Shown here in pieces: positions 1-54,369 of a DNA stretch of 64,000 nucleotides (positions are counted from its first letter, which is position 1; every line of letters begins with the position of its first letter). The translations under genes and the position numbers were made by a program. This DNA comes from Acidimicrobiales bacterium (lineage in GTDB: Bacteria > Actinomycetota > Acidimicrobiia > Acidimicrobiales > Aldehydirespiratoraceae). The notes beneath the pieces are model-generated. The model did no database searches. It was not told where the DNA came from and saw only the letters and a program-made list of their open reading frames with translations. The stretch is taken from the NCBI GenBank assembly GCA_033344915.1, contig JAWPML010000001.1:3550263-3614262 (forward strand), read 5' to 3'.

Positions 1-300
1 GTGCATCGCGGTGTGGGTGCGCATCAGCCGGTGCCGGCGGTCCCAGTCGATCTCGCCGGTCACGGTGTCGCCGACGGCAGGCAGCTCGCCGTCGAGGGTG
101 TGCCAGACGTCGGCACCCTCCTTGCGCACGTTCGTGACGGCGGCGCCGCCCAGGGTGCCGAGGTCGTGCGGTTGCCCGCCTCCGGTTGCGTAGAACGCCG
201 TGCGGTCGAGGGCGACCCGGCCGTTCTCCTCGTCGACGGCGGTCACGGTGGCATCGAACGTGCGCAGGTAGGCATCGGCGAGGAACAGCAACTCGGTCAT
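1..300 (-). CDS. AlaX-like alanyl-tRNA editing / AlaRS-related protein, N-terminal part (gene runs off the window start)
   Basis: My own translation of the minus strand from the ATG at 300 gives MTELLFLADAYLRTFDATVTAVDEENGRVALDRTAFYATGGGQPHDLG...HTAMH. FYxTGGGQPxD is the AlaRS/AlaX N-domain signature. This ORF is not in the supplied track; the + ORF 1..420 is its shadow. Confidence 0.6.
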   Translation of the reverse strand, partial: MTELLFLADAYLRTFDATVTAVDEENGRVALDRTAFYATGGGQPHDLGTLGGAAVTNVRKEGADVWHTLDGELPAVGDTVTGEIDWDRRHRLMRTHTAMH

Positions 301-324
301 GTCCGAGAGCTTGCCCCATCCCCA

Positions 325-438
325 CGAACTGGCGTGTGCATCACCCTGGTTTCGGGTGACACGCACGCCAGTTCGGGACGGCGAGCGAACTGGCGTGTGC
401 ATCGCCCTGGTTTCGGGTGACGCGCACGCCACTTCGGG
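325..438. repeat. Two tandem copies (61-bp period) of a 53-bp palindromic element
   Basis: 325..377 and 386..438 read cgaactggcgtgtgcatc(a/g)ccctggtttcgggtgac(a/g)cgcacgcca(g/c)ttcggg. Each unit is an imperfect hairpin. A third copy lies at 7457..7509. Confidence 0.8.
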
Positions 439-457
439 TGGGTAGGGCGTGGACGGG

Positions 458-1960
458 TCAGGGGTGGGGGAGGGCGGCGTCGCGCAGGAGGGCCTCGGCG
501 GCGGCGAGTTCGGGGGAGAGGAAACGGTCGGGGCCGGCGCCGGGGACCCGGGTCCGCAGCAGCTCGACCAGCGCACCGGTGGCCGGGGCGGGGACCAACG
601 GGGCCCGCAGTTCGATGGCGCGGGCCGCGCACACCCACTCGACGGCCAGGATGCGCCGCGTGTTGTCGACCACGCGGCGCAGCTTGCGGGTGGCGTGCCA
701 CGCCATCGACACATGGTCCTCCTGCATCGCGGAGGTCGGCAGTGAGTCGACCGACGCGGGGGCGGCCAGTCGCTTGTTCTCCGACGCGAGCCCGGCCGCG
801 GTGTAGTGCCCGATCATGATCCCGCTGTCGACCCCGACCTCCTCGGCCAGGAAGGGCGCGAGCCCGTGGTTGCGGCCCTGGTCCATCATCCGGTCGATGC
901 GCCGTTCGGCGATCGCGCCGACCTCGGCGAGCGCGATGGCGAGGAAGTCGGCGGCGAATCCCAGGGGCGCGCCGTGGAAGTTGCCGCACGACTCGACCCG
1001 GCCGTCCGGCAGCACCATCGGATTGTCGATCGCCGAGGCCAGCTCGCGTTCGGCGACGGCGCGGCCGTGGTCGAGAGTGTCGCGAGCGGCGCCGTGGACC
1101 GCCGGCGTGCAGCGGATCGAGTAGGCGTCCTGGACCCGGGTGTCGGTCGGCCCGGCATGGCTGGCGATGATCGGGGAGTCGGCGAGCATCCGCCGGAGGT
1201 TGGCCGCCGACGCGCGCTGGCCGGGATGGGGCCGCAGGTCCTGGAGGTCGGCGGCGAAGGGCGCGTCGGTCGCCAGGAGCCCCTCGACGGTCATCGCGGC
1301 CACCATGTCGGCCTGGTCCAGCAGGTCGGTGATGTCGTGGACGGCCAGGCACAGCTGGCCGAGGATCCCGTCGGTGCCGTTGGTGAGGGCCAGGCCCTCC
1401 TTCTCGGCCAGGTCGATCGGCTCGAGCCCCGCGTCGGCGAGCGCCTCGGCCGCGGTGACGGTCTCGCCGTCACGCGAGGCCGTGCCTTCGCCGATCAGGG
1501 TCATCGCCGCGTGGGCGAGGGGGGCCAGGTCGCCGCTGGCGCCCAGTGAGCCGTACTCGGGAACGACGGGAGTGATCCCGGCATTGAGGATGTCGACCAT
1601 CGCCTCGGCGAGCCGGGGCCGGGTGCCGCTGTGACCCATCGCCAGGGTGCGGGCCCGCAGGAACACCATCGCCCGGACGACCTCGTCCTCCACGGGGTCG
1701 CCCATGCCCGCCGCGTGGGACCGCACGAGGGCGAACTGTAGATCCCGCCGTCGTTCCGGGGGTATCGCGACCGTGGCGAGGGCACCGAAACCGGTGGAGA
1801 TGCCGTACTTCGCGGCGCCGCCGGCGAGGCCGTCGACGATCGCCCGCGAGGCGGCCATGCGCTCGATCGCCGCGGCCGTGAGGCGAACCGGGTCGCCGGT
1901 GCGGGCGACGGCGACCACATCGGCGACGGTCGTGCCGGGCCCGTCGAGCTCGATGGTCAT
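458..1960 (-). CDS. hutH: Histidine ammonia-lyase
   Basis: Starts MTIELDGPG...; contains the MIO-forming GSLGASGDLAPL motif; about 500 aa. The ATG at 1960 overlaps the stop of the upstream IclR gene (ATGA). Confidence 0.93.
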   Translation of the reverse strand: MTIELDGPGTTVADVVAVARTGDPVRLTAAAIERMAASRAIVDGLAGGAAKYGISTGFGALATVAIPPERRRDLQFALVRSHAAGMGDPVEDEVVRAMVFLRARTLAMGHSGTRPRLAEAMVDILNAGITPVVPEYGSLGASGDLAPLAHAAMTLIGEGTASRDGETVTAAEALADAGLEPIDLAEKEGLALTNGTDGILGQLCLAVHDITDLLDQADMVAAMTVEGLLATDAPFAADLQDLRPHPGQRASAANLRRMLADSPIIASHAGPTDTRVQDAYSIRCTPAVHGAARDTLDHGRAVAERELASAIDNPMVLPDGRVESCGNFHGAPLGFAADFLAIALAEVGAIAERRIDRMMDQGRNHGLAPFLAEEVGVDSGIMIGHYTAAGLASENKRLAAPASVDSLPTSAMQEDHVSMAWHATRKLRRVVDNTRRILAVEWVCAARAIELRAPLVPAPATGALVELLRTRVPGAGPDRFLSPELAAAEALLRDAALPHP

Positions 1961-2673
1961 CGGGCGACTCCTTGTTCGTTGGCGGTGTCGGTGCGGGTGC
2001 GGCGGAGATCGTGTTCGAGGGCGTCGACCGCGGCCTGCAGCGCTGTCTCGTGCTCGCGGGCGGTGCGGCGGGTGAAGCGATGGGCCGGGCCGACCACGGA
2101 GACGGCGGCGCGGCCCGCCCACGGCCCGCCGAGGCCGAGGCTGACGGCCGCGATGTCGGGCTCCACGGTGCCGCTGCGCGTGGCCGGAGCGCCGGGTGAC
2201 GCCAGGGCGGCCCCCACCGCCGTGCCGGCGAGCGGTACCCGTTGGCCGACACCACCGGCGTGACGGATGGCCCGGGAGCTCTCGGCGGTGTCGACATAGG
2301 TGGCCGTGTCGCCATCGGCGATCGCGAGATACGTGGACTCGCCGGTGTGGGCCGCGAGCCGCCGCAGGTGGGGCTGGGCGACCGCCGACAGGAGCTGGAC
2401 CTCGTCGGTCTGGCGCAGCGTGTCGGCCATCGATCGGATCATCGGCCCCGGCGTGTATTCCCCCGCGTCGCCCCGGCGGACGTAGCCCCGGGTGCCGAGG
2501 GCCTGGAGGTAGCGGCGCGCCGTGGTCGGCGTGAGACCCGTCTTCTCGGCGGCGACGGTGAGGGTGCAGGCCCGGTGGGCGACGACGACCTCGAGGAGAT
2601 CGAGCACCCGGCCGATCGATCGGGGGACGGCAGCGTCCGGCGCCGAGGTGTCATTAGCTGACAATGCTGTCAT
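1957..2673 (-). CDS. IclR-family transcriptional regulator (probable hut regulator)
   Basis: MTALSANDTS...SIGRVLDLLEVV...TLTVAAEKTGLTPTTARRYLQAL is an N-terminal wHTH, followed by an IclR-type effector domain. Translationally coupled to hutH and divergent from hutU. The longer track ORF (to 3345) is rejected. Confidence 0.8.
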   Translation of the reverse strand: MTALSANDTSAPDAAVPRSIGRVLDLLEVVVAHRACTLTVAAEKTGLTPTTARRYLQALGTRGYVRRGDAGEYTPGPMIRSMADTLRQTDEVQLLSAVAQPHLRRLAAHTGESTYLAIADGDTATYVDTAESSRAIRHAGGVGQRVPLAGTAVGAALASPGAPATRSGTVEPDIAAVSLGLGGPWAGRAAVSVVGPAHRFTRRTAREHETALQAAVDALEHDLRRTRTDTANEQGVAR

Positions 2674-2682
2674 TGATTGACA
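2649..2682. promoter_or_regulatory. Two tandem TGTCA-N5-TGACA palindromes (candidate operator)
   Basis: TGTCAttagcTGACA (2649..2663) and TGTCAttgatTGACA (2668..2682) lie in the 40-bp divergent gap between the IclR gene start (2673) and the hutU start (2713). The region is locally AT-rich. Confidence 0.5.
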
Positions 2683-2712
2683 CACTAGGGATACTGCGCG
2701 CACACTGCAACC

Positions 2713-4395
2713 ATGAGTTCGTTCGGCCCGATCGGCAGTCCTGTCCGCGACATCTCGGCGCCTCGCGGCAACACCCTGCACTGCCGCGGGTGGTCGCAGG
2801 AAGCGGCCTACCGCATGCTGCAGAACAATCTGGACGCGGAGGTCGCCGAGAATCCCGACGAGCTCGTCGTCTACGGCGGCACCGGCCGGGCCGCCCGCTC
2901 GTGGCCGGCCTACCAGGCCATGCTCCACACGCTCACGACGCTGGCCGACGACGAGACGATGCTCGTGCAGTCGGGCAAGCCGGTGGGTGTCGTCCGCACC
3001 CACGAGTGGGCGCCGCGGGTGCTCATCGCCAACTCGAACCTGGTGCCCGACTGGGCGAACTGGGACGAGTTCCGTCGGCTCGAACACGAGGGTCTGACGA
3101 TGTACGGCCAGATGACGGCGGGCTCGTGGATCTACATCGGCACGCAGGGGATCCTCCAGGGCACCTTCGAGTGCTTCGCCGAGATCGCCCGGCGCCGCTT
3201 CGGCGGCACGCTTGCCGGCACGCTGACCGTCACCGCCGGCGCCGGCGGGATGGGCGGGGCCCAGCCCCTCGCGGTCACGATGAACGACGGCGTCGTGCTC
3301 ATCGTGGACGTCGACCGGCACATGCTCGAGCGCCGGGTGGAGCACCGCTATCTCGACGAGATCGCCGACGACTACGAGGCCGCCGTCGCCCGGGTCACGG
3401 CGGCGAAGGCGTCACGCACGCCGCTCTCGGTGGGCCTGCTCGGCAATGCGGCCGACGTGCTGCCCCGGCTCCTCGCCGACGGAGTGGCCGCCGACATCGT
3501 CACCGACCAGACCTCGGCCCACGACCCGCTCAGCTACCTCCCCAACGACCTCTCCCCCGAGGCGGCCGCCGAACTCCGTTCGAGCGATCCCGCGGAGTTC
3601 ACCCGTCGGGCCCGGGTCGCCATGGCGACCCACTGCCAGGCGATGGTCGGTTTCATGGACGCCGGGAGCGAGGTGTTCGACTACGGCAACAGCCTCCGGG
3701 CCGAAGCGAAGCTCGGCGGTTTCGAGCGGGCCTTCGACTATCCGGGCTTCCTGCCCGCCTACATCCGTCCCCTCTTCTGCGAGGGGATGGGGCCGTTCCG
3801 GTGGGTGGCGCTCTCGGGCGACCCGGCCGACATCGCGGCGACCGACCGCGCCGTGCTGGAGGAGTTCCCCGAGAACGAGTCGCTCGCCCGCTGGATCCGC
3901 CTCGCCGGCGAACGGGTCGCGTTCCAGGGTCTGCCGGCGCGGATCTGCTGGCTCGGCTACGGCGAACGTCACCGCCTCGGCCTGCGCTTCAACGAGATGG
4001 TGCGCACCGGTGAGCTCTCGGCCCCGGTCGTCATCGGTCGCGACCATCTCGACTCGGGATCGGTGGCGTCGCCGTACCGCGAGACCGAGGGGATGCTCGA
4101 CGGGTCCGACGCGATCGCCGACTGGCCGCTGCTGAACGGGCTCGTCAACAGCTGCTCGGGGGCGACGTGGGTGAGCATCCACCACGGCGGCGGGGTCGGC
4201 ATCGGTCGGTCGATCCACGCGGGTCAGGTCACGGTCGCCGACGGGACCGAACTCGCGGCGGAGAAACTCGAACGGGTGCTGACGAACGATCCCGCCACCG
4301 GTGTGATGCGCCATGTCGACGCCGGCTACGAGGCGGCCGCCGCCGTCGCGAGGGAACGGGGCGTGCAGGTGCCGATGCTGGAGCCCGACGCATGA
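2713..4395 (+). CDS. hutU: Urocanate hydratase
   Basis: 560 aa; [18 protein letters not shown]..., the [11 protein letters not shown]-site motif, and full-length urocanase-like sequence. Confidence 0.95.
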
Positions 4396-4961
4396 CCGTG
4401 CGGTCGATCCTCCAGCTCGGCGACCCGGCGTTGCGGGTGGTGGCCGAGCCGGTGGATCCCGCCGAGATCGGGTCCCCCGAGGTGCAGCGGCTCGTCGACG
4501 ACCTGATCGAGACGATGCGTGACGCGAACGGCGCCGGGCTCGCCGCGACGCAGATCGGCGTGCACCGCCGAGTGGTCGTGATGGAGGTCGCCGACAACCC
4601 CCGCTACCCGTACAAACCCCGGCTGCCCCTCACCGTTGCGATCAACCCCGTGATCGAGCCGATCGACGACGAGACGGTGGTGATCAACGAGGGGTGCCTC
4701 TCGGTACCCGTGCGGGGCGATGTGACGCGCCACGTGCAGGTGCGGGTCCGCTATCTCGATCGCGAGGGGGTCGACCACGACGAGGTCGTGCGCGGACTCA
4801 CCGCGGGCACGTGGCAGCACGAGTGCGATCATCTCGACGGTCTGCTGATCGTCGACCGGGCCGACCCGCGATCGCTGAGCACCTGGGAGGAATTCGAACG
4901 GCACCATCGCGACGCGTTCGTCGAACGGATCTCCGCGTTCGTGGAGCGCGTCGGGTCGTGA
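4392..4961 (+). CDS. def: Peptide deformylase family protein
   Basis: All three PDF motifs are present: [17 protein letters not shown] and HECDHLDG. The ATG at 4392 overlaps the hutU stop (ATGA); its stop overlaps the hutF GTG (GTGA). Confidence 0.85.
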
Positions 4962-6295
4962 GCCGCTGGTGGTGCGAACACGCGGTGCTCCCGGACGGGC
5001 CGCAGTCCGGCATCACGATCGACGCGACGGACGGCCGGATCACCGCGATCGCCCCCGACCCGTCACCGCCGCGTGATGCGGTGCGGCTCGCCGGCGTGAC
5101 GATCCCCGGCCTCGCCAACACCCACAGCCACGCGTTCCACCGGGCGCTGCGCTCGCGCACCCAGGCCGGCTCGGGGTCGTTCTGGACGTGGCGCGACGTC
5201 ATGTACGAGGCCGCGGGGCGGCTCGATCCCGACAACTACCGGCGCCTCGCCCGGGCGGTGTTCGCGGAGATGGTCACAGCCGGTCACACCGTCGTCGGCG
5301 AGTTCCACTATGTCCACCATCAGCCCGACGGCACGCCGTACGACGACGCCAACGCGATGGGGGCGGCGCTGCTCGAGGCTGCGGGTGAGGCGGGTCTGCG
5401 CATCACGTTGCTCGACACGCTGTACCTCCACGGTGGCCTGGACGCCGACGGCTACCGTCCGGTGTCCGATGCCCAGCGTCGCTACGCCGATGCCGGGGCC
5501 GAGGCGTGGGTCGACCGGGTGGCGGGGCTGGCGGCCGGGCCCGGGCAGGCGATCGGGGCGGCGATCCACAGCGTGCGGGCGGTGGACCCGGCGGCCGCCG
5601 CCGTGGTCGCCCGGTGGGCCGACGCGGCGCAGGCGCCGGTGCACGCGCACGTGAGCGAGCAGCCGGCCGAGAACGACGCCTGCCTCGCCCACCACGGCCG
5701 CACGCCGATGGCCCTGCTCGGCGGGGTCGGCGCGCTGGGGCCGCGGTTCAGTGCGATTCATGCGACCCATCTCGAGCCGGGCGACATCGACCTCCTGGCG
5801 GCGACGGGAGCCTCCGTGGGCCTCTGCCCGACGACGGAACGTGACCTCGGCGACGGCATCGGCCCGTCGGTCGACCTCGGCGCGACCGGCGTGGGGATGC
5901 ACCTCGGCAGCGACAGCCACGCCGTGATCGACCACTTCGTCGAGGCCCGCGCGGTGGAGCTCCACGAGCGGCTCCGCGCGGAGCAACGGGGACTACATTC
6001 CGCTGCCGCCTTGCTGACGATGGCGACACGCAACGGCCATGGCGCGCTCGGCTGGCCCGACGCCGGCGCCCTCGCGGTGGGGATGCGGGCCGATCTCGTG
6101 ACCGTGCGGCTCGACTCGCAACGCACGGCCGGGACCCCCGACGACGCCGTGATCGAGGCCGTCGTGTTCGCGGCGACCGCGGCCGATGTCACCGACGTGG
6201 TCGTCGATGGTCGCGCCGTGGTGGCCGACGGTCGTCATCTGACTCTCGACGTCCCGGGCGAACTCGACGCCGCGATCAAGGAGTTGTTCGCATGA
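4958..6295 (+). CDS. hutF: Formimidoylglutamate deiminase (amidohydrolase superfamily)
   Basis: [14 protein letters not shown]...[16 protein letters not shown]; HutF-like N-terminus and metal-binding HxH; about 445 aa. GTG start chosen from coupling with def. Confidence 0.8.
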
Positions 6296-7452
6296 CCACC
6301 ACCGTCATCGACGACATCGGTCTGCTCGTGACCAACGATCCCGCCCTGGGGGAGGGTCCGCTGGGCCTCGTGCGCGACGCGTCGGTCGTGATCGACGACG
6401 ACATGGTCGTCGCCGTCGGCCCGGCGGGCCAGATCGCCGACGAGCGGATCGGGGCGGAGGGCGGGTGTGTCCTGCCCGGCTTCGTGGACAGTCACACCCA
6501 TCTGGTCTTCGCCGGTGATCGCAGCGAGGAGTTCACCGCCCGCATGGCCGGTCGCCCCTATGACGGCGGCGGAATCCGGGTGACGACGGACGCGACCAGG
6601 GCCGCGGCCACGTCCGAGCTCGACCGTCTCGTGCGCATCCGTCTCCGCGAAGCGCACCGGGCGGGGACGACGACGATCGAGATCAAGTCCGGCTACGGCC
6701 TCAACGTCGACGACGAGGTGCGCAGTCTGGACGTCGCCGGTCGTCACACCACGGAGACGACGTTCCTCGGTGCCCATCTCGTGCCCGCCGAGTACGAGGG
6801 TCGGACGGACGACTATGTCGACCTCGTCTGCGGCGAGATGCTCGAGGCGTCCGCGTCGAAGGCCCGCTGGATCGATGCCTTCTGCGAGACCGGCGCGTTC
6901 GACGAGGACCAGAGCCGCGCCGTGCTCGAGGCCGGCCGGGCTGCCGGGCTCGGTCTGCGCCTGCACGGCAACCAGCTCGGTGCCGGGCCGGGTGTGCAGC
7001 TCGCCGTGGAGTGCGGCTGCGCGTCGGTCGACCACTGCACCTACCTCACCGACACCGACATCGAGGCGCTGGCCGGGAGCGACACGGTGGCGACCTTCCT
7101 TCCCGCCGCGGACTTCTCGACCCGCCAGCCCTATGCGGACGCCCGCCGGGTGATCGACGCGGGCGTCACAGTCGCGATCGCCTCGAACTGCAATCCCGGA
7201 TCGAGCTACACGACGTCCATCTCGTTCTGCATCGCCATCGCGGTGCGCGACATGGGCATGACGATCGACGAGGCGATCCAGGCGGTGACGATCGGCGGTG
7301 CCGCGGCCCTGCGCCGAGACGACGTCGGCCGACTCACCCCCGGCGCCGCCCCCCACGCGGTGATCCTCGACGCCCCGAGCCACCATCATCTCGCCTATCG
7401 CCCCGGTGTCCCCCTGATCCGCCACACGATCGGCCCCCTCGCCACCCACTGA
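6292..7452 (+). CDS. hutI: Imidazolonepropionase
   Basis: 386 aa; [16 protein letters not shown] motif; amidohydrolase fold; ATGA overlap with hutF. Confidence 0.9.
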
Positions 7453-7456
7453 TCAC

Positions 7457-7509
7457 CGAACCGGCGTGCCGGTCACCCGGATTCCGGGTGATGCACACGC
7501 CAGTTCGCC
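7457..7509. repeat. Third copy of the 53-bp palindromic element seen at 325..438
   Basis: cgaaccggcgtgccggtcacccggattccgggtgatgcacacgccagttcgcc. Its right arm is the exact reverse complement of the left arm of copy 325..377. It sits 5 bp after the hutI stop. Confidence 0.75.
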
Positions 7510-7579
7510 GCGGTGCGGGGGTGGGTGTCACACCCCGTCGGCAGAGTGGTGTGCATGCGCTGCGCCGGTAGCCTTCAGG

Positions 7580-7676
7580 CGTCCCTTCGGGGGCCGTCCC
7601 CTCGGGGACGTACAACCGACACAACCCCTGCCCCGGGAAGGGGCCCCGTGCAAGCGGGTCCAGAGGAGGTGAGCTC
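7580..7676 (+). promoter_or_regulatory. Structured 5' leader of rpsF (possible S6:S18 autoregulatory leader)
   Basis: Several short perfect hairpins (cccTTCGggg at 7583..7592; GTCCCCtcGGGGAC at 7596..7609) are followed by the RBS gaggagg (7663..7669) and the GTG at 7677. Assigning this to the known rpsF leader class is an inference only. Confidence 0.25.
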
Positions 7677-8027
7677 GTGGCACTGCAACGAGCCTATGAA
7701 CTGATGATCATCGTGGATTCCGATGTCGCCGAGATCGACATCCCCAAGATGATCACCCGTACCGAAGGTCTGATCACCGACGAAGGTGGCACCGTGAAGT
7801 CGACCGACAACTGGGGTCGGCGCCGGTTCGCCTACGAGATCGACCACAAGACCGAAGGCACCTACGTGGTGTGGGAGATTGTGACCGAGACAGCCGGTCT
7901 GCCCAACACCGAGCGCCAGCTCCGTCTCGCGGACGACATCGTCCGCCACAAGCTGTTCCGTCTCCCCGAGAAGGAGGCCGCCAAGCGTGGTCTCTTCGGT
8001 GAGGCGGCGCCGGCCGCGGCCGGCTGA
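7677..8027 (+). CDS. rpsF: 30S ribosomal protein S6
   Basis: (V)ALQRAYELMIIVD...GRRRFAYEI.H...G.Y; canonical S6; strong RBS upstream. Confidence 0.92.
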   Translation: MALQRAYELMIIVDSDVAEIDIPKMITRTEGLITDEGGTVKSTDNWGRRRFAYEIDHKTEGTYVVWEIVTETAGLPNTERQLRLADDIVRHKLFRLPEKEAAKRGLFGEAAPAAAG

Positions 8028-8042
8028 CCGGGAGGTACCGAC

Positions 8043-8504
8043 ATGGCATTCGACAACACCATCACCGTCGTGGGCAACGTGACCCGCGATCCGGAGCTGC
8101 GGTTCACGCAGGGCGGCATGGCCGTCGCGAACTTCGGCGTCGCGTGGAACAAGCGCAAGGCGGACGGCGAAGAAGAGGTCTCGTTCTTCAACGTGAGCTG
8201 CTTCCGGCAGCTCGCGGAGAACGTCGCCGAGTCGATCACGAAGGGTTCGCGTGTCGTGGTCTACGGCATGCTCCAGCAGCGCAGCTGGGACACGCCCGAC
8301 GGTGATCGCCGCTCCGCGGTCGAGATCATCGCCGACGACGTCGCCCCGAGTCTCAAGTGGGCCTCGGCCGAGATCCGCAAGAACGAGTTCCGCGGCGAAG
8401 GCGGCGGACAGGGCGGAGGCCAGGGCGGCGGAGGTGGCGGCGCGAGCCGTCCGGCCGCCAACCAGGCGCCCCCCGCATACGACATGGACGAAGAGCCCTT
8501 CTAG
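8043..8504 (+). CDS. ssb: Single-stranded DNA-binding protein
   Basis: OB fold (ITVVGNVTRDPELRFT), a Gly-rich linker and an acidic tail ending DMDEEPF. Confidence 0.93.
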   Translation: MAFDNTITVVGNVTRDPELRFTQGGMAVANFGVAWNKRKADGEEEVSFFNVSCFRQLAENVAESITKGSRVVVYGMLQQRSWDTPDGDRRSAVEIIADDVAPSLKWASAEIRKNEFRGEGGGQGGGQGGGGGGASRPAANQAPPAYDMDEEPF

Positions 8505-8531
8505 GGCCACCGACACGAGAGAACGAAGAAC

Positions 8532-9014
8532 ATGGCAAAGGCAAAGTCGAAACCGCGCGGTGGCCCGAAGGGCATGAAGGCCAACGACCGTCGCGGCGGC
8601 AAGAAGAAGGTCTCGATCCTCGCTCAGGAGAAGATCGAGTACGTCGATTGGAAGGACGCGAACCTGCTGCGTCGTTTCATGTCCGAACGGGCGAAGATCC
8701 GCGCCCGTCGGGTCACCGGCAACGACACCCAGCAGCAGAAGCTGGTTGCGGACGCGATCAAGGTCGCCCGTGAGATGGCGTTGATCCCCTACGCCAACCG
8801 CGTCACGAACCAGAGCCGTAGCCGCGATCGCGGTGAACGCGGCCGCGCCGACGGTCCGGCGCCGCGTCCGAGCGGTCCGCCGCCCGGTGGCGACGAGGAG
8901 ACCGACGACACGGAGACCACGGACGTGGTCGACACGACCGAGCTCGAGGGCGTCACCATCGACGGCGAGACCGCCACGATGGCCGATGCGGCCGGCGAGG
9001 AGGCCGAATCGTGA
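8532..9014 (+). CDS. rpsR: 30S ribosomal protein S18 with a long acidic C-terminal extension
   Basis: S18 core ([29 protein letters not shown]...[13 protein letters not shown]) followed by about 70 extra residues rich in P/G/D/E/T. The stop overlaps the rplI start. Confidence 0.88.
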
Positions 9015-9457
9015 AGGTGATCCTGCGACAGGACGTCGACGGACTCGGCCGCAAGGGCGACATCTGTGATGTCGCGGACGGCCACTTCCGGAATCTGCTC
9101 GACCCGCGCGGCCTCGCGATGAAGGCCACGAAGGGCGCGGAGGTGCAGGCCGAGGCCATGCGCCGCGCCGCGTCGATGAAGAACGCGGCGAGCCGCGCCG
9201 ACGCCGAAGAGGTCGCCACGATGCTGGTGCCCTCGGTCATCACGATCGCGGCCAAGGCCGGCGATGGTGGTCGACTGTTCGGCTCGGTCGGTGCCGCAGA
9301 GATCGTGGAAGCGGTCGAAGCCCAGACCGGCGCGGTGGTCGACCGTCGCTCCCTCAACCTCGAGCATCCCCTCAAGGATCTCGGCCAGGCGATGGTGATG
9401 TGCAAGCTCCACCCCGAGGTGGAGTTCCCCATCACCGTCGAGGTGATCGAAGCGTGA
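9011..9457 (+). CDS. rplI: 50S ribosomal protein L9
   Basis: [30 protein letters not shown]; canonical L9; 148 aa. Confidence 0.92.
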
Positions 9458-9459
9458 TG

Positions 9460-9491
9460 GTGCGGTCACCTCGATCCCGGGGTGACCGCAC
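9460..9491 (+). terminator. Hairpin immediately after rplI (candidate intrinsic terminator without a U-tract)
   Basis: gtgcggtcacc (9460..9470) pairs perfectly with ggtgaccgcac (9481..9491) around a 10-nt loop. Confidence 0.4.
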
Positions 9492-9701
9492 GATCAACCG
9501 AGTGCCCGGCGGGCCCACTTCGGCGCGCCCGGACGGTCGTCCCCACCCGTCCACAGGGTCATCCCCAGGGCGAGGGATCTGTGTGCAAGATCTGTCCACA
9601 GGAATTCGCCCTGATTTCCCCGTGAATTCGGGAGATTCCCACTGGCTCCGCACAGGCCCGCGGGGCCAGGATCGTGCGTCGGCGTCGGGAGTGGAACCCA
9701 C

Positions 9702-11057
9702 ATGGTGATGAGCGAGATGGACACGACCCGGGCCTCCCGTGTGCCGCCCCACAATCTGGAGGCCGAGGAGTCCCTGCTCGGCGCCATGCTGCTGAGCCGC
9801 GACGCCATCGCCGATGCCGTCGAGGTCGCCTCCGTCGAGCACTTCTACCGCCCGGCCCACGCCCACGTCTACGACGCGATCTCCACGCTCTATGCCGCCG
9901 GCGATCCGGTCGACCCGGTCACGGTCGCCGAGGAACTCGATCGCGCCGGGGTCCTCGAGACCATCGGCGGTCTCGATGGTCTGATCGCGTTGCAGGTCAA
10001 CACCCCCGCCACCTCGAACGCGGGCAAGTACGCCAGCATCGTGCAGGAGCGCTACACCCTGCGCCGGCTCATCGAGACGGCCGGCGAGATCGCCGAGATC
10101 GGCTACAGCCGGCCCGACGACGTCACCAAGGCGGTCGACGAGGCCGAGAACATGATGTTCCAGGTCGCCCAGGGCAGGGTGGCCGACACGATGGGGGAGA
10201 TCCGCGATCTTCTCGACGCGACCCTCGACCGGCTCGAACAGCTCTACGAGGCCGGCGAGGGCATCACCGGCACGCCGACCGGATTCATCGATCTCGACGA
10301 GCTGCTGTCCGGGCTCCAGCCCAACGCCCTGCTGATCGTCGGCGCCCGTCCGGCCATGGGCAAGACCTCCTTCGCCCTCAACATGGCCGCCCACGCGGCG
10401 GTGCGGGAGAACCGGCCGACCCTCGTCTTCAGCCTGGAGATGGGCCATCTCGAACTCACCCAGCGGCTGTTGTGTGCCGAGGCCAACGTGGACGCGAAGG
10501 CGATGCGCGACGGCAACCTCAAGGAGGACGACTGGACCCGCATCTCGAACGGCATCGGTCGTCTGGCCGAGGCGCCGTTGTGGATCGACGACAACCCCAA
10601 CCTCACGATCATGGAGATCCGGGCCAAGGCCCGGCGGCTGAAGAGTCGGGTCGGTGATCTCGGCATGATCGTGGTCGACTATCTCCAGCTGATGACCGGC
10701 CGAGCGGGGGCCGAGAGCCGTCAGGTCGAGGTCGCGGAGATCAGTCGAGGTCTCAAGATCCTCGCTCGCGAGCTCCAGTGCCCGGTGGTCGGCCTGTCCC
10801 AGCTCTCCCGAAATCTCGAGATGCGGCAGGACAAGCGACCGATGCTGGCCGACCTGCGCGAGTCGGGCTCGATCGAACAGGATGCCGACGTCGTGATGTT
10901 CCTGTACCGCGACGAGGTCTACAACCCGGGGAGCGAGAACGAGGGCATGGCCGAGGTGATCGTCGCCAAGCACCGCAACGGTCCGACGGGCACCATCAAT
11001 CTGGGCTTCCTCCCCCGGTTCACCTCCTTCAAGAACCTCACCCGCCGCGACCTCTGA
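9702..11057 (+). CDS. dnaB: Replicative DNA helicase DnaB (no intein)
   Basis: PPHNLEAEESLLGAMLL at the N-terminus; Walker A GARPAMGKTSFALN; 451 aa. Confidence 0.93.
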   Translation: MVMSEMDTTRASRVPPHNLEAEESLLGAMLLSRDAIADAVEVASVEHFYRPAHAHVYDAISTLYAAGDPVDPVTVAEELDRAGVLETIGGLDGLIALQVNTPATSNAGKYASIVQERYTLRRLIETAGEIAEIGYSRPDDVTKAVDEAENMMFQVAQGRVADTMGEIRDLLDATLDRLEQLYEAGEGITGTPTGFIDLDELLSGLQPNALLIVGARPAMGKTSFALNMAAHAAVRENRPTLVFSLEMGHLELTQRLLCAEANVDAKAMRDGNLKEDDWTRISNGIGRLAEAPLWIDDNPNLTIMEIRAKARRLKSRVGDLGMIVVDYLQLMTGRAGAESRQVEVAEISRGLKILARELQCPVVGLSQLSRNLEMRQDKRPMLADLRESGSIEQDADVVMFLYRDEVYNPGSENEGMAEVIVAKHRNGPTGTINLGFLPRFTSFKNLTRRDL

Positions 11058-11848
11058 TGCTCGCCGACGTCACCGTCGAGGAGTGGGTCACCGCCGGCGC
11101 CGTCGCCCTCGGTGCGATCCTCGGCACGGTCCTCATCGGTCGCGTGGTCATGGCCGGCCTCACCCGACGGCTCGCCCAGCCGTCCCTCGCCGTCGGGCTC
11201 GTCGTGCGGATCGTCCGGTGGACGGTCCTGCTGTTCGGGTTCATCTACGCGGCGAGCATCGTCGGCGTCCAGATCGGCCCGTTGATCGGCGCCCTCGGGC
11301 TCGGTGGCCTCGCCATCGCCTTGGCCCTGCAGCCGGTCCTGCAGAACCTGTTCGCCGGGGTGGTGCTCCAGACCGAGCGACCCCTCGAGTGCGGGGAGGA
11401 GATCACCACGAACGGCCATGACGGTGTGGTGGTCGAGGTCACGGGTCGGGCGGTGATGCTGAAGACGTTCGACGGTGAACTCGTCACCATCCCGAATTCC
11501 ATGGTGCTCGACAGCCCGTTGGTCAACCACAGCCGCGAAGGTCACCGTCGATCCCGGGTGGAGGTGGGGGTGGCGTACCGCAGCGATCTGCCGACGGTCA
11601 CGGACGTCCTGCGCACCGCAGTGGCGGCCGCGGACGGCGTGCGGGAGACCCCCGAACCGACCGTCGTGGCCCGCTCCTTCGCCGACTCGTCCATCGAGTT
11701 CCAGATCGACTTCTGGCATCGGGCGACGAACCAGATCGAACGCGAGACCCGCGCCGCGGTCATCTTGTCGGTCCACGCGGCCCTGGCCGATGCGGGAATC
11801 ACGATCCCGTTCCCCCAGCGCGACGTGCATCTCCCGCCCGCGGGCTGA
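11057..11848 (+). CDS. Small-conductance mechanosensitive channel (MscS family)
   Basis: Three N-terminal TM helices followed by ...FAGVVLQTERPLECGEEIT..GVVVEVTGRAVMLKTFDGELVTIPNSMV (MscS beta-domain signature). The ATG overlaps the dnaB stop by 1 nt. Confidence 0.8.
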   Translation: MLADVTVEEWVTAGAVALGAILGTVLIGRVVMAGLTRRLAQPSLAVGLVVRIVRWTVLLFGFIYAASIVGVQIGPLIGALGLGGLAIALALQPVLQNLFAGVVLQTERPLECGEEITTNGHDGVVVEVTGRAVMLKTFDGELVTIPNSMVLDSPLVNHSREGHRRSRVEVGVAYRSDLPTVTDVLRTAVAAADGVRETPEPTVVARSFADSSIEFQIDFWHRATNQIERETRAAVILSVHAALADAGITIPFPQRDVHLPPAG

Positions 11849-11856
11849 CGTCGATC

Positions 11857-12624
11857 TCAGCCGATCGGCTGGGGTGCCCCGGCGAGACATCCCTGCGTGT
11901 ACGCGATGCGGCTCGCCATGACGGAGGCCAACTGGGCGGGCCGCTCCACGGCCTGAGCGACGAGGTCGTACCCCTGGGCGTGGAGCTCGTCGGCGGTGCG
12001 GGCGAGGATGTCGCGGCCGAACGCATCGTCGCACGAACCCACCAGGGCACGATCGAGCTTCACGATCGAGCCGGTCGGCAACCAGTCCGGCGACGGCCGG
12101 GTGGCCGATCCCTCGCCGCGATGGTCGTCGAGGGCCAGCCGGGCCCCGTCGGCGCACAGTGATGCGAGATGGTCGACGGCCCGGCGGCAGGCGTCGGGTC
12201 CGATGTGGTCGGGGATCTCGAGCAGGAGGTTGTCGGCCCGGAGGGTGTGCCGTTCCAGCAGTTCCTCGATCTCGTCGGCGACGGTCGGCCGGGCGAGCTG
12301 CGTGTGGTGCAGGTTGAGCGCAAGGCGCCCGCCGTGGGGTGCGTCGGACCGGCGGGCCCAGTGGCTGATGGCGAGTTCGGTCGCCCGGTTCGTGCACTCC
12401 TCGATCCGGCTCGTCTGCTCCGCGATCGGGAGGATCATGCCGGCTGCCCAGAGCTCGTTCGCCGAGCGCCGCCAGCGCAGGAGGGCTTCGGTCGCCAGCA
12501 GCGAACCATCCGCCGTGTGGTGGATGCCCTGTCCATGGATCTCGAGGCTGTCCCAGCTGGCCGTGAATTCCGTCCGGAGATCGATGGTCGGCACGACATG
12601 CTCGGAGCGACGCAGCAAACGCAT
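11857..12624 (-). CDS. Stand-alone EAL-domain protein (c-di-GMP phosphodiesterase type)
   Basis: Shows EALLRW, LALNL, LLLEIPD, ALDDHRGEG, VKLD, AQAVE and TQGC, so the conserved EAL catalytic positions appear present. No GGDEF or sensor domain. Confidence 0.7.
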   Translation of the reverse strand: MRLLRRSEHVVPTIDLRTEFTASWDSLEIHGQGIHHTADGSLLATEALLRWRRSANELWAAGMILPIAEQTSRIEECTNRATELAISHWARRSDAPHGGRLALNLHHTQLARPTVADEIEELLERHTLRADNLLLEIPDHIGPDACRRAVDHLASLCADGARLALDDHRGEGSATRPSPDWLPTGSIVKLDRALVGSCDDAFGRDILARTADELHAQGYDLVAQAVERPAQLASVMASRIAYTQGCLAGAPQPIG

Positions 12625-12713
12625 ACCTCACGGATCGTCCCGAACCGCGTGGCCCCTGAGCCCGAACCCGGTGTTCGGGACGATGGTCCCACGCACCTGG
12701 TGACCGAAGTACC

Positions 12714-13400
12714 TTGCGGGACATGCGACCCGTCATCCTCGTGGTTGCGGGTGTGGCGATCGGGCTGCTCGCCGCGGTCGTGCTCACCACTGTCGTGTGG
12801 GACGACGAGCCCGACGATTCCGGGCCGCCCCTCGAGCTCTCCTTCCCACCGGTCGACCATGACGTGGATGCGGCGGAGGCGCTGATCGTCGCGTGGAACC
12901 GGTGGCGCACCGCCACCTTCGTGACGTCGGGCACCTGGACCCGGACCCTCGACGACGGCGGCGAACCCCTGATCGGAGACGTCCTCGTCGCCCAGGATCC
13001 GCCGCGCCGACTGGTGTTCCGGCTCGGCTCGGTCAGCGAGTCGATCGACGGCAGCGTGACGACCTGCGACACGTCCACGGACCAGGCGATCTCACCGGGC
13101 TGTCTGGCCGCGTCCTCGCAACGCACCTACGCCGAGCGGGTTGCCGACGAGATGCAGCTGGTGCTCGGGTTCGTCGTCGGCGACGCCCGTCTCTACGACG
13201 TTGCCCGCGACGACGGGTGTTTCCAGGTCGAACTGCGCGAGCCCCTGCTGCGGTCGACCTGGGGACGGGCCGCGGCGTTCTGTTTCGACGAGGAAACGGG
13301 GGCCCTGCTGTCCAGCCGGGTCCGCCGACAGTCGGCGACGGACGTGGAGATCACCACGTCCATCCGCACCGACGTGACCGACGACGATTTTCTCAGTTGA
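12714..13400 (+). CDS. Hypothetical membrane-anchored protein
   Basis: N-terminal TM or signal anchor (PVILVVAGVAIGLLAAVVLTTVVW); coding-like composition; no motif recognised. Confidence 0.5.
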   Translation: MRDMRPVILVVAGVAIGLLAAVVLTTVVWDDEPDDSGPPLELSFPPVDHDVDAAEALIVAWNRWRTATFVTSGTWTRTLDDGGEPLIGDVLVAQDPPRRLVFRLGSVSESIDGSVTTCDTSTDQAISPGCLAASSQRTYAERVADEMQLVLGFVVGDARLYDVARDDGCFQVELREPLLRSTWGRAAAFCFDEETGALLSSRVRRQSATDVEITTSIRTDVTDDDFLS

Positions 13401-13401
13401 T

Positions 13402-13526
13402 GAGAGGAGGGCGGAGGCCGAACGAGGCGCCGGCACCCTGGAGAAGCGCGGCGGCGCTGCGTTGGAGGGAGTGTCCGACCCCCACCCGTTCCTCTCGTGG
13501 CCACCGGGGGCGAATCCGTTGGCCAC
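13402..13526 (+). repeat. Structured ~125-nt repeat, copy 1 (candidate ncRNA or 3'UTR element)
   Basis: Begins 2 nt after the stop of 12714..13400. It is homologous to 13878..14005 and shows compensatory substitutions in two predicted stems. Confidence 0.6.
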
Positions 13527-13591
13527 TGTCCGTATCGGAGGCCGGCGCCACGAGTTGATGGCCCCCGGGAAAGGGGGGCCGTTCGGCCCGG

Positions 13592-13837
13592 TTGGCAGGT
13601 GACCCCGGTCGCCGCCAACATGGCCGCGTGTTCCTTGGTGAGGATCTGCTTCCCTGGTTGGTATTGGCGATCGGCGGCGCGATGGCCGCCGGCAACCTCG
13701 CCGCGCTGGTGCGTCCGCCCGACGAGCGCCGTGACGACGCCGACCTCGAGCGGGCGCCGATGGCGCGCAGCATCGTCTTCATCGTGGTGGGCGTGGTCGC
13801 CGCGATCTGGGCCCTCGCCAGCCTGATCTCGGGGTAG
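13592..13837 (+). CDS. Small two-TM membrane protein (start uncertain; GTG at 13628 possible)
   Basis: Two hydrophobic helices (LLPWLVLAIGGAMAAGNLAAL and IVFIVVGVVAAIWALASLI). Flanked by the two structured repeats. Confidence 0.4.
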   Translation: MAGDPGRRQHGRVFLGEDLLPWLVLAIGGAMAAGNLAALVRPPDERRDDADLERAPMARSIVFIVVGVVAAIWALASLISG

Positions 13838-13877
13838 CCCCAGAACGTCGGAACCGCCGACCGAGGGCCGGCGGTTC

Positions 13878-14005
13878 GAGAGGGGGCGGAGGTTGAACGA
13901 GTGCGCCAGCACCCTGGAAAAGCGCTGGTGGCGATGCGTTGGAGGGAGTGTTCAACCCCCACCCGTCTCTCATGTGTGACCGGCGGGGGCGAAACCGCCG
14001 GACAC
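13878..14005 (+). repeat. Structured ~128-nt repeat, copy 2
   Basis: gagagggggcggaggttgaacgagtgcgccagcaccctggaaaagcgctggtggcgatgcgttggagggagtgttcaacccccacccgtctctc, plus a terminal hairpin ccggcgg-gggcgaaa-ccgccgg. Confidence 0.6.
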
Positions 14006-14051
14006 CACTACCTTCGGCGCGTCGGACGGCGTGCTTGAGCGGATTTCCCGC

Positions 14052-14891
14052 TCAGTCGGGAGGTCCCGCGCCCCAACGGGGTGGGCGCTTCTCGTTCAAC
14101 GCTGCGGCCCCTTCGCGATAGTCCGCCTCCGTCATCATCTGCTCGAGTCGCGCCTGTGCGTCGCGCACGCTGCGGGCCGGATCGTCGTGGGTGGCGTCGG
14201 TCGCGAGCTGGCGTTTCGTGGCCCGCAAGGCGTGGGGGCTGACGGTCTCGATCAGCTGACGGGCGTAGCGCTCGGCGCTGGTGAGGACCGCGTCGGCCTC
14301 GGTGACCTGGTTCGCCAGGCCGAGCTCGCCCGCCTCCTCGCCGAGCAGGATCCGTGAACTGAGCAGGATGTCGCTCGCCCGGCCCCGCCCCACCAGCCGG
14401 GGCAGGATCCAGGACAGCCCGTACTCCGCCGGGAGGTTCAGCTTGCCGTGGGCGCTGGTGAGCTTGGCCGTGCGGGCGATGATGCGGATGTCGCACCAGC
14501 ACAGCAGGGCGAGGCCGACGCCCGCCGCCGCCCCGTTGACCGCCGCGATGGTCGGGGTCTCCATCGCCAGCAGGTAGGTGAAGTCGGCCTCGAACGCCGG
14601 ATCGACCCCGGCGCCGGGGGTGGCGAGGTCCGGCGGTGTTCCGGGGTCGTAGCGGCCCCGCTCGGCGTGCGCGGCGAGCGCCTGCGCGTCGCCGCCGGGG
14701 CAGAAGGTGCGACCGGCGGGATCGCCGGTGATGATGATCACCCGCACGTCGGGATCGGACTCGCCCACGTCGAGGAGATGACGCAGTTCGGTGTGCATGC
14801 GCCCCGTCCACGCGTTGTTGGACTCGGGGCGCGACAAGGTGAGCGTGGCCACGCCGTCGTCGATGGCCCAGCGGGTGGTCTTCAGCTCCAT
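14052..14891 (-). CDS. Enoyl-CoA hydratase/isomerase (crotonase) family protein
   Basis: VATLTLSRPESNNAW...VRVIIITGDPAGRTFCPGGD...; crotonase fold; 279 aa. Confidence 0.8.
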   Translation of the reverse strand: MELKTTRWAIDDGVATLTLSRPESNNAWTGRMHTELRHLLDVGESDPDVRVIIITGDPAGRTFCPGGDAQALAAHAERGRYDPGTPPDLATPGAGVDPAFEADFTYLLAMETPTIAAVNGAAAGVGLALLCWCDIRIIARTAKLTSAHGKLNLPAEYGLSWILPRLVGRGRASDILLSSRILLGEEAGELGLANQVTEADAVLTSAERYARQLIETVSPHALRATKRQLATDATHDDPARSVRDAQARLEQMMTEADYREGAAALNEKRPPRWGAGPPD

Positions 14892-14936
14892 GGCCGTCGA
14901 CCCTAGACAGACGACGGGCCGGATACCGTCGCTTGC

Positions 14937-16853
14937 GTGCGGTCCTGGTTCGTTGGTTGCGCGGCACTGGCCGCGATGGTGGTCGTCGCGCCGGCCCCCG
15001 CGTCAGCGACGGAGGCCGATGAGGCCACGCCGGATCGTGATCGGGTCGCCGCGGCGGTCGTCTATCGCGTGGATCCGGAGAACGGGGAAGTGCGGGCGAC
15101 GGCGAGGGTCACGGTGCGCAATGTGGACCCGGCGGCGACGAGCGAGATCGAAGCCGTCTCCCTCGTGTTGCCCGCCGTGGCGCCGGAGACCGTTGCCGCG
15201 AGTCGCAGCGGCGTGGCGGTGGCGGTCGCCGCGGGTCCGGCGGACGACGACTTCGCGGTGTTCACGTTCTCGCTCGGCCGGGCGATCGGTCCCGGCGAGG
15301 TGGCGGAGCTCTCCGTGACGTTCGTGATCCGGTCATCGGTCGGCCTGCGGGTGCCGTCGGCGACGCGGATCGATCCTGCCTACGTCAGCTTCCCGGCCCG
15401 GGGCATCGGCGATCCGGGGAGTGGGTCGGTCGCGATCGAATGGCCCGCGTTCTTCGAGGCCCGCTGGATCGGCGTCGATGCGGAACGCGTCGACGAGGGG
15501 TTCGTCGCCACGTTGGCGACCGACGGTGTGGGTCGTGACTTCGCCGCGGTGTTCGAGATGCGCAACGACGATCGGCTGGAGCGCACCGGCCTCGCGATAC
15601 CCGGCACGGACGCAGGGGTGGAGCTGGCCACGTGGGAGGGGGACGTGTTCTGGCGGTTCGGCATCGGCGCCGATCTCGTCGTGTTGATTCCGACCCTGGT
15701 CGATCTGGTCGGCGAGCCGTGGTCGTTGACCGGCACCCTGGTGGTGCGCGAGACGAATGCCGATGTCGTGCACGGCTACGGCGGCTCGTTCGTGCGAACG
15801 CCCGACGGGGGCGGGGAGATCGAGATGGGGACGGTGTTGGACCGGCGAATCCTCGCCCACGAGCTGGCCCACGCGTGGTTCGATCGGCGCCTCGACCCAT
15901 GGCTCGCGGAAGGGCTCGCGGAGGAGTACGCACGGCAGGCGACCGGACGCACCGGGTTCACACCGGTGGCTCGTGACGACCCGGCCGCCGTCGCGCTGGA
16001 GCTGTGGGAGCCGCGGGCGGGCGCCGACGAGACCGATCGCCACGCCTACGCCGCGGCGGCCGGACTGTTCTCCACGCTCGCCGCCGAGATCGGGGACGAG
16101 GCACTGCGCGACGCGGCCAGCGGCCTGCTCGGCGACGGCTCCCCGTACGGCGACGACCTGCCGATCGTCGACGGGCTGCGGGACTGGCAGCGCCTGCTCG
16201 ATCATGCCGAGGCGGCGGGGAGCGAGATGATCGAGCCCCTGCTCGTCGACTGGGTTCTGGCCACGCCGCCGCGGGATGTTCTCGCAGCCCGGACCGACGC
16301 GCGCGACGGCCTCGCCGCGTTCGAGGCCCGCTCCGGCGAGTGGGGTGTGCCATCCGCGATCCGGCTCGCGCTGGCCCGGTGGGACTTCGCCACGGCCGAG
16401 GAAGCAATGACGGCGGCGTCGGCCCTGCTCGACGAACGGGATCGGCTGGCTGCGGCGAGCGCGGCGGCGGGAGTTGCGGTGCCGGACGACGCCGAAGCCC
16501 TCTTCGCCACCGATCCGCGGGGAGCGGCCGAGGCGCTGCTCGCCCAGGCCGACGGACTCGCTGCGGTCGAGGCGGCCCAGGCTGCGGTCGCGGCGAGCCG
16601 TTCGTGGGTGGCCGACATCGGTAGCTGGGGCACCGACGTCGACGCGGATCTCGCGGCCGTGGTCGCCCACTACGAGGCGGGGGAGCACGATGCGGCGGTC
16701 CAACGGGCGGACGCGCTCCGGCGCGACATCGACGGTGCCGAGTCGCTCGGTGCCCGGCGGATCGCGGCCGCGGTCGCCGGGGTCGCGGTGCTCGCCCTCG
16801 CCGGGCTGCTCATCGGCGTTCGCCGCGTCCGCCGCACCGCGGCGGCTGGGTAA
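14937..16853 (+). CDS. Secreted, C-terminally membrane-anchored M1-like zinc metallopeptidase
   Basis: Signal peptide (AALAAMVVVAPAPASA); HELAHAWF...WLAEGLAEEY (HExxH plus the downstream Glu of gluzincins); C-terminal TM (AAAVAGVAVLALAGLLIGV). Confidence 0.65.
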   Translation: MRSWFVGCAALAAMVVVAPAPASATEADEATPDRDRVAAAVVYRVDPENGEVRATARVTVRNVDPAATSEIEAVSLVLPAVAPETVAASRSGVAVAVAAGPADDDFAVFTFSLGRAIGPGEVAELSVTFVIRSSVGLRVPSATRIDPAYVSFPARGIGDPGSGSVAIEWPAFFEARWIGVDAERVDEGFVATLATDGVGRDFAAVFEMRNDDRLERTGLAIPGTDAGVELATWEGDVFWRFGIGADLVVLIPTLVDLVGEPWSLTGTLVVRETNADVVHGYGGSFVRTPDGGGEIEMGTVLDRRILAHELAHAWFDRRLDPWLAEGLAEEYARQATGRTGFTPVARDDPAAVALELWEPRAGADETDRHAYAAAAGLFSTLAAEIGDEALRDAASGLLGDGSPYGDDLPIVDGLRDWQRLLDHAEAAGSEMIEPLLVDWVLATPPRDVLAARTDARDGLAAFEARSGEWGVPSAIRLALARWDFATAEEAMTAASALLDERDRLAAASAAAGVAVPDDAEALFATDPRGAAEALLAQADGLAAVEAAQAAVAASRSWVADIGSWGTDVDADLAAVVAHYEAGEHDAAVQRADALRRDIDGAESLGARRIAAAVAGVAVLALAGLLIGVRRVRRTAAAG

Positions 16854-36327: not shown

Positions 36328-36385
36328 GTTCGATATCGGAGGGGCCGGTCAACGCGCCCGCCCGCTCGGAAACGGAGAACCGCCC

Positions 36386-39182: not shown

Positions 39183-39255
39183 GTCGATCTCCTGGGTGGT
39201 AGGTGTGAAGAGATCGAACGACGGGGCGCTTTGCGGCCACTGAAGGTTCGTTGAA

Positions 39256-54321: not shown

Positions 54322-54369
54322 GGCCGTGAGGTTACGACCCGGCCGCGGTGGCGTCGATCGGGCCCGCCG

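Follow-up and report, generated by a model that had tools for sequence, protein, structure and literature searches.

The hut cluster for histidine degradation in an Acidimicrobiales bacterium contains a peptide deformylase-like gene, here called def-like, which is embedded between hutU and hutF. Its product is probably an N-formyl-L-glutamate deformylase with the fold of the peptide deformylases (PDFs), and would catalyse the fifth step of the HutF-type pathway; this reading is drawn from sequence, gene order and gene fusions. We lean towards extending it to the whole PDF branch to which the protein belongs, the RYPYKP type. This branch, found in at least 592 bacterial species genomes and, as a fusion with HutF, in choanoflagellates and chrysophytes, would then be an unrecognised group of N-formyl-L-glutamate deformylases. 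The DNA analysed, called the window throughout, is a stretch of 64,000 nucleotides (nt) with 69.7% G+C from a host genome of 4.48 Mb, and all coordinates are positions in it.

In the HutF route, N-formimidoyl-L-glutamate is converted to N-formyl-L-glutamate, from which HutG then yields formate and glutamate. The HutG of Pseudomonas is an N-formylglutamate amidohydrolase (EC 3.5.1.68) of the FGase family (PF05013). HutH, HutU, HutI and HutF are encoded together in the window, and all four score above the respective NCBIfam equivalog cut-offs. The def-like gene is located among them as follows:

458..1960, minus strand: hutH, histidine ammonia-lyase, step 1 (TIGR01225, 639 bits, cut-off 539; PF00221 match on the identical Logan contig L001)
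2713..4395, plus strand: hutU, urocanate hydratase, step 2 (TIGR01228, 887 bits, cut-off 375)
4392..4961, plus strand: def-like gene, 189 amino acids (aa), RYPYKP-type PDF subfamily, proposed step 5 (PF01327, motifs, synteny, fusions)
4958..6295, plus strand: hutF, formimidoylglutamate deiminase, step 4 (NF006681, 592 bits, cut-off 362; TIGR02022, 466 bits, cut-off 413)
6292..7452, plus strand: hutI, imidazolonepropionase, step 3 (TIGR01224, 352 bits, cut-off 298)

The HutU of the window scores under the cut-offs of the thiourocanate hydratase models. An earlier note on this DNA had described the order hutU-def-hutF-hutI with ATGA, GTGA and ATGA overlaps, which is borne out by the coordinates, by the letters at the junctions and by an independent gene call on contig L001 that gave the same gene boundaries. 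All three junctions are 4-nt overlaps (gcATGAcc, tcGTGAgc and gcATGAcc); the GTG start codon of hutF overlaps the stop codon of the def-like gene, and the start of hutI overlaps the stop of hutF. A GGAG is located 8 nt ahead of the def-like ATG, and the codon usage of the gene is native, with a G+C content at third codon positions (GC3) of 0.90 as in the neighbouring genes.

The def-like protein is a member of the peptide deformylase superfamily by sequence and by fold. In NCBI, a protein of an Acidimicrobiales MAG (MDW3220338.1) has the identical sequence (100% identity). PF01327 was the sole Pfam family matched (153 bits, E=4.9e-45). The three catalytic and metal motifs of Def, which the earlier note had found to be kept, are all present in the 189-aa translation (G47-A-G-L-A-A-T-Q54, E100-G-C-L-S104 and H143-E-C-D-H147) and are invariant across 23 orthologues. 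A structure predicted with AlphaFold2 (AF2) had a predicted local distance difference test score (pLDDT) of 86, and Foldseek retrieved the PDF of Leptospira (1SV2) as best PDB match, with template modelling (TM) scores of 0.79/0.86 and 45% identity. Altogether, the model gave 162 PDB matches at E<=0.001, and all 50 matches listed were PDFs. A long, highly conserved helix is located at the C-terminus (residues 165-187). Judged by sequence, the protein is outside the HutG/FGase family, and it would be analogous to HutG without being homologous to it.

No other candidate for an N-formylglutamate deformylase was found in any of the more than 100 hut/def clusters. In the 64-kb window, FGase (PF05013), arginase and M20 domains were absent from the 20 open reading frames (ORFs) that are compatible in size with HutG, and none of the three was found in the L001 gene table, which spans window positions 1-14961. 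The domain scan of the cluster and of the size-compatible window ORFs thereby upholds the earlier statement that the cluster lacks hutG. The families that recur in the flanks of related hut loci likewise include no deacylase and no FGase.

The association of the def-like gene with hut genes is conserved. A scan of GTDB with one genome per species, using patterns derived from the 23 orthologues, identified relatives in at least 592 genomes, and the best 80 of these were analysed. They are nearly all metagenome-assembled genomes (MAGs) of Acidimicrobiia, and tblastn with the Hut proteins of the window detected hutU, hutF or hutI beside the def-like gene in 80/80. Wherever the contig was long enough, the order in these 80 loci was hutU-def-hutF-hutI. 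Another 28 hut-linked loci came from metagenomes scanned with more distant family members as seeds. The gap between def and hutF was at most 10 nt in 71 of 101 pairs and at most 60 nt in 93 of them. Two loci (L159 and L148) have the order hutH-hutU-hutF-hutI-def, and since def is kept in these differently ordered clusters, the linkage to hut genes outlives rearrangement. The Def-like proteins are more conserved than the HutF proteins, the median identity to the window protein being 68% for the former and 56% for the latter.

The gene content of the related clusters varies. Two loci contain the def-like gene followed by hutI with no hutF in between (L080, a 3.7-kb Solirubrobacteraceae contig, and L018, which ends soon after); here hutF may be encoded elsewhere in the genome. 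Several loci have an additional gene that separates hutU from the def-like gene. In related Acidimicrobiia this gene encodes a PhyH-family (Fe/2-oxoglutarate) dioxygenase (L012:5147-6001, L077:5144-6001, L081:5108-6001 and L068:5061-5963), and in other loci an MttB-family methyltransferase (L049:3772-5316, 627 bits), a second aromatic amino-acid lyase (L004:4412-6001) or an HTH_67 protein (L078:3156-4163). None of these inserts encodes a deacylase; the methyltransferase, the second lyase and the HTH_67 protein hint that the substrate may vary, for instance to thio-histidines or methylated histidines. Downstream of hutI, a DAO-family FAD oxidoreductase is encoded in 14 of the 80 genome loci, for instance in L054:9107-10612.

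Def and HutF are also found fused into one polypeptide. Searching 1.84 billion representative proteins yielded 90 matches at E<=1e-30. One of them, P0161 (659 aa), joins a Def domain to a downstream amidohydrolase domain, and its C-terminal 430 residues are 37% identical to the HutF of the window (E=8e-63). Using P0161 as query, we obtained about 17 clusters with this Def-HutF architecture, comprising proteins of 640-740 aa; one of the fusions, P0271, matches the HutF model NF006681 with 382 bits (cut-off 362). Single fusion ORFs run without interruption on 6 and 11 independent contigs, amid genes for eukaryote-like proteins (EF-hand, ankyrin and Oscp1 proteins as well as a full ABC transporter of 1541 aa). 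Transcriptomes of two choanoflagellates, Stephanoeca diplocostata and Acanthoeca spectabilis, and of the chrysophyte Paraphysomonas likewise contain such fusions. Three long proteins from high-GC contigs that looked like fusions (P0131, P0145 and P0151) were discarded, since the low-complexity Arg/Ala-rich text after their Def part marks them as artefacts of frameshifts or gene calling. Def is fused to other domains as well, namely to ankyrin repeats in P0264 (590 aa) and to a preceding TatD-like hydrolase in P0232 (459 aa); neither protein carries the RYPYKP signature.

Another type of deacylase is coupled to HutF in a similar manner. Oomycetes (Phytophthora, Pythium and Lagenidium; e.g. P0346) encode fusions of an N-terminal HutF with a C-terminal M20 domain. 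Of three bacterial hutF loci sampled, two have a gene for an ArgE-like M20 protein that overlaps hutF by 4 nt (L089:4856-7308 and L091:4835-7314), the latter locus being from an Acidobacteria MAG according to the protein source name. Because both these M20 fusions and overlaps and the Def fusions exist, HutF has repeatedly been paired, by coupling or by fusion, with deacylases of unrelated folds.

The window protein belongs to a subfamily with a distinct signature, which consists of NPRYPYKP in the CD loop and (A/S)G(T/P)xQHExDH at motif 3; in the window protein these read N69PRYPYKP76 and A138GTWQHECDH147. The signature was counted in 90 representatives with readable motifs 1 and 3. Among those with RYPY[KMR]P, 25/28 also contain G[TP]xQHE and GAG, and G[TP]xQHE was found in 0/62 representatives without RYPYKP. 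GAG in motif 1 was rejected as a diagnostic feature, since it is present in 17 representatives from outside the family too. The Def domains of the eukaryotic fusions carry the signature of the window protein, including AAGTLQHE. A Def phylogeny had been proposed in the earlier note; in the neighbour-joining (NJ) tree the RYPYKP-type proteins form one monophyletic clade, separate from deformylases of the RYPDAP type and from those resembling the Leptospira interrogans PDF (LiPDF). Within this clade, the eukaryotic fusions constitute one group, and the hut-linked bacterial proteins all fall into another.

The signature includes positions of the S1' pocket. In AtPDF1B this pocket contains Ile42 (the second residue of motif 1, equivalent to Ile44 of the E. 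coli PDF), Phe58 and Ile130 (PMC3101196), and in the PDF of S. agalactiae it contains Val71, Leu125, Glu129, Tyr167, Val171 and His174 (PMC5071857). In our alignment, Ala48 of the window protein corresponds to Ile42 of AtPDF1B and Val71 of the S. agalactiae enzyme, and Thr140 corresponds to Ile130 and Val171, respectively. All family members have Ala48, Thr140 (position H-3) and Gly139 (H-4), and by this alignment-based mapping the hydrophobic residues expected of a methionine-binding S1' pocket (Ile/Val at the first position, Ile/Val/Cys at the second) are replaced. In addition, Tyr74-Lys75 in the CD loop are specific to the family; in LiPDF the CD loop covers the pocket. These substitutions suggest that the S1' pocket is enlarged and more polar in comparison to methionine-binding PDFs, and Lys75 and Thr140 could be candidates for binding a carboxylate of glutamate.

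The following pathway is proposed from these data. HutH, HutU and HutI would convert histidine to N-formimidoyl-L-glutamate, which HutF would deiminate to N-formyl-L-glutamate. The Def-like enzyme would then hydrolyse the formyl-amide bond of this compound, releasing formate and glutamate, and would thereby replace the unrelated FGase-type HutG. Catalysis would be carried out by the usual PDF machinery, with the metal bound to Cys102, His143 and His147, Glu144 as catalytic residue, and Gln54. The pocket (Ala48, Gly139 and Thr140) together with Tyr74-Lys75 of the CD loop may accommodate the side chain or the carboxylates of glutamate. The hut genes and the def-like gene would be co-expressed from a single transcript under the control of an IclR-type regulator. 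Scaffold and reaction type are known; the substrate and the physiological role would be new. Recruitment of the Def homologue as N-formylglutamate deformylase had been raised as a possibility by the earlier note, and it gains support from the conserved linkage, the short gaps to hutF, the reordered loci, the fusions, the M20 parallel and the substitutions in the S1' pocket.

Several observations weigh against this assignment. The protein scores 113.6 bits with TIGR00079, which is over the equivalog cut-off of 104, and NCBI rules would therefore name it peptide deformylase. In about two dozen long-flank metagenome loci that encode the complete signature, hut genes are lacking within a distance of 6 kb, and the contexts of such unlinked loci are varied (nuoA/nuoD, purL, phosphatidylserine decarboxylase and kinases). 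In four loci (L117, L118, L128 and L129) the full-signature Def gene is located beside nuoA/nuoD without linkage to hut, and the nearest named proteins are from Myxococcota (Labilithrix and Myxococcales bacterium 68-20). The idea that the signature is exclusive to hut-linked genes was rejected, since unlinked members of this Myxococcota type carry it in full; either the hut genes are dispersed in these organisms, or the role of the family is broader or different. In Streptomyces avermitilis, an M20 protein (COG0624) that had been predicted from its hut cluster to be a deformylase showed no such activity when it was assayed (PMC3223725, Table 3 case 20). The ArgE-like proteins seen here may differ from the Streptomyces member in M20 subfamily. 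Finally, the roles proposed for the pocket residues, carboxylate binding by Lys75 and Thr140 among them, are hypothetical and derive from a sequence alignment.

Part of this evidence would fit a Hut-associated hydrolase with another substrate, such as N-formimidoyl-L-glutamate, the N-formyl derivative of a different amino acid or a side product that bears a formyl group, or a RYPYKP family of general N-formyl-amino-acid deformylases in which only the hut-linked clade meets N-formylglutamate. We regard this explanation as rather unlikely. It would account for family members away from hut genes and for the failure of the hut-linked M20 candidate on N-formylglutamate, and the PhyH, MttB and second aromatic lyase genes in the clusters of relatives suggest variant substrates. 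However, the protein is tightly coupled or fused to HutF, whose known product is N-formylglutamate, and no cluster contains another enzyme for this product. Furthermore, the chemistry proposed for N-formylglutamate matches the PDF reaction type exactly.

Alternatively, the protein could be a regular PDF with a housekeeping or accessory role in deformylating nascent proteins, which came to lie among hut genes through a chance gene order passed down in Acidimicrobiia. Housekeeping def genes are often found in a def-fmt context, which does not strictly define them. A search with a broad Def profile (hmmsearch) in six-frame ORFs of the window and of 82 loci detected only the hut-linked copy, which favours an ordinary PDF, as do the intact catalytic motifs, the TIGR00079 score, the housekeeping-like contexts of signature relatives in Myxococcota and others, and the closest solved structure, which is from a genuine PDF with an RYP-containing CD loop of its own (Leptospira 1SV2). 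The cluster names of ten high-GC Def representatives, inspected for a canonical Acidimicrobiia Def as seed, included 0 from Acidimicrobiia. Conversely, tblastn with an approximate E. coli Fmt query gave no match to fmt in the window and 160 loci, a weak negative result that speaks against a housekeeping locus, and a sole essential def would be odd in a catabolic operon regulated by its substrate. The residues that recognise methionine in the S1' pocket are replaced in every member. An accident of gene order does not agree with linkage in all 80 genomes across class-level divergence, with its retention through reordering and with fusion to HutF in eukaryotes. Taking both sides into account, we consider an ordinary PDF improbable. 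A non-catalytic partner or stabiliser of HutF, to which the tight coupling and the fusions would also point, is very improbable, since metal ligands, catalytic Glu and Gln54 are invariant in bacterial and eukaryotic members, which is unexpected for a scaffold. An N-formyl-L-glutamate deformylase thus remains the reading that we prefer.

Upstream and downstream of the operon, the following features were found:

1957..2673, minus strand: gene for an IclR-family regulator (PF09339/PF01614 in the L001 gene table; NCBIfam IclR-family matches weak)
2648..2683: imperfect palindrome GTGTCATTAGCTGACA/TGTCATTGATTGACAC with repeated TGTCA/TGACA half-sites (inverted repeat, 16-nt arms, 75% complementary)
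7457..7507, plus strand: hairpin with 25-nt arms, 80% complementary, 1 nt between the arms, without T-tract (inverted repeat search)

The gene for the IclR-type regulator is divergent from hutU and overlaps the start of hutH by 4 nt, and its position adjoining hutH is kept in most related loci. The palindrome covers the start of iclR and the intergenic gap of 39 bp between iclR and hutU; it is a candidate operator for this regulator. The hairpin directly 3' of hutI is a possible end of the operon. It is followed by a second GC-rich hairpin (7580-7610) and by rpsF-ssb-rpsR-rplI-dnaB, with the second hairpin located before rpsF. A scan of the high-GC window for promoters and terminators gave nothing useful, and the hairpin at 7457-7507 was not called as a terminator.

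Other genes of the window appear to be unrelated to the hut cluster. A regulator with Trans_reg_C, BTAD and FHA domains is encoded at 39244-40356 on the plus strand, near a Ser/Thr protein kinase gene at 35017-36348 on the minus strand. A PhyH dioxygenase gene (53473-54369, minus strand) is located beside genes for an Fe-ADH and a LysR regulator.

If the assignment is correct, the branch would add another, non-homologous enzyme to those of the last Hut step and would be, to our knowledge, the first with PDF fold in the catabolism of small molecules. The PDF scaffold, regarded as a single-function antibiotic target, would have been recruited for a metabolite, with clear specificity-determining positions. 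A pathway hole would be filled in Acidimicrobiia and their relatives, whose HutF-type catabolism has no recognisable enzyme for N-formylglutamate; hundreds of annotations as peptide deformylase would be wrong, and the gap of a missing HutG in these lineages would be closed. Since NCBIfam, Pfam and the source names all say peptide deformylase, histidine degradation would have been mis-scored as incomplete and def over-counted in metabolic reconstructions for the abundant Acidimicrobiia of soil and sea. The Def-HutF and HutF-M20 fusions of protists would illustrate how unrelated enzymes are interchangeable at one pathway step.

In Pfam, NCBIfam release 20 and the searchable literature, no PDF-fold N-formylglutamate deformylase and no def gene in hut operons was found to be described; the one pertinent literature item was the M20 prediction that failed in the assay. 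Among the known systems, LiPDF (PDB 1SV2/1SZZ), a PDF of type 1 whose CD loop is enlarged, is closest to the window protein: it is the best PDB sequence match (150 bits), shares the fold and the three motifs, and has a CD-loop insertion of equal length that opens with N-x-R-Y-P in both proteins. The two differ in motif 1 (GVG in LiPDF, GAG in the window protein), in the CD loop (RYPGTP and RYPYKP, respectively) and ahead of motif 3 (KAIVYQHE and TAGTWQHE); the window protein, unlike LiPDF, is hut-linked and has the conserved C-terminal helix 165-187. The eukaryotic fusions, from choanoflagellates, Paraphysomonas and marine eukaryote contigs, resemble the window arrangement in that their Def domain is about 49% identical, the signature is common to both and HutF directly follows Def; they differ in being single polypeptides instead of two overlapping genes, in falling into a separate NJ clade and in having His instead of Leu at H-7. 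The hut-associated M20 deacylases occupy the corresponding genomic slot and are predicted to have an equal role, but their fold is unrelated. With the HutG of Pseudomonas, finally, the def-like protein would have in common the reaction and the position in the pathway after HutF, whereas the two proteins have no sequence relationship.

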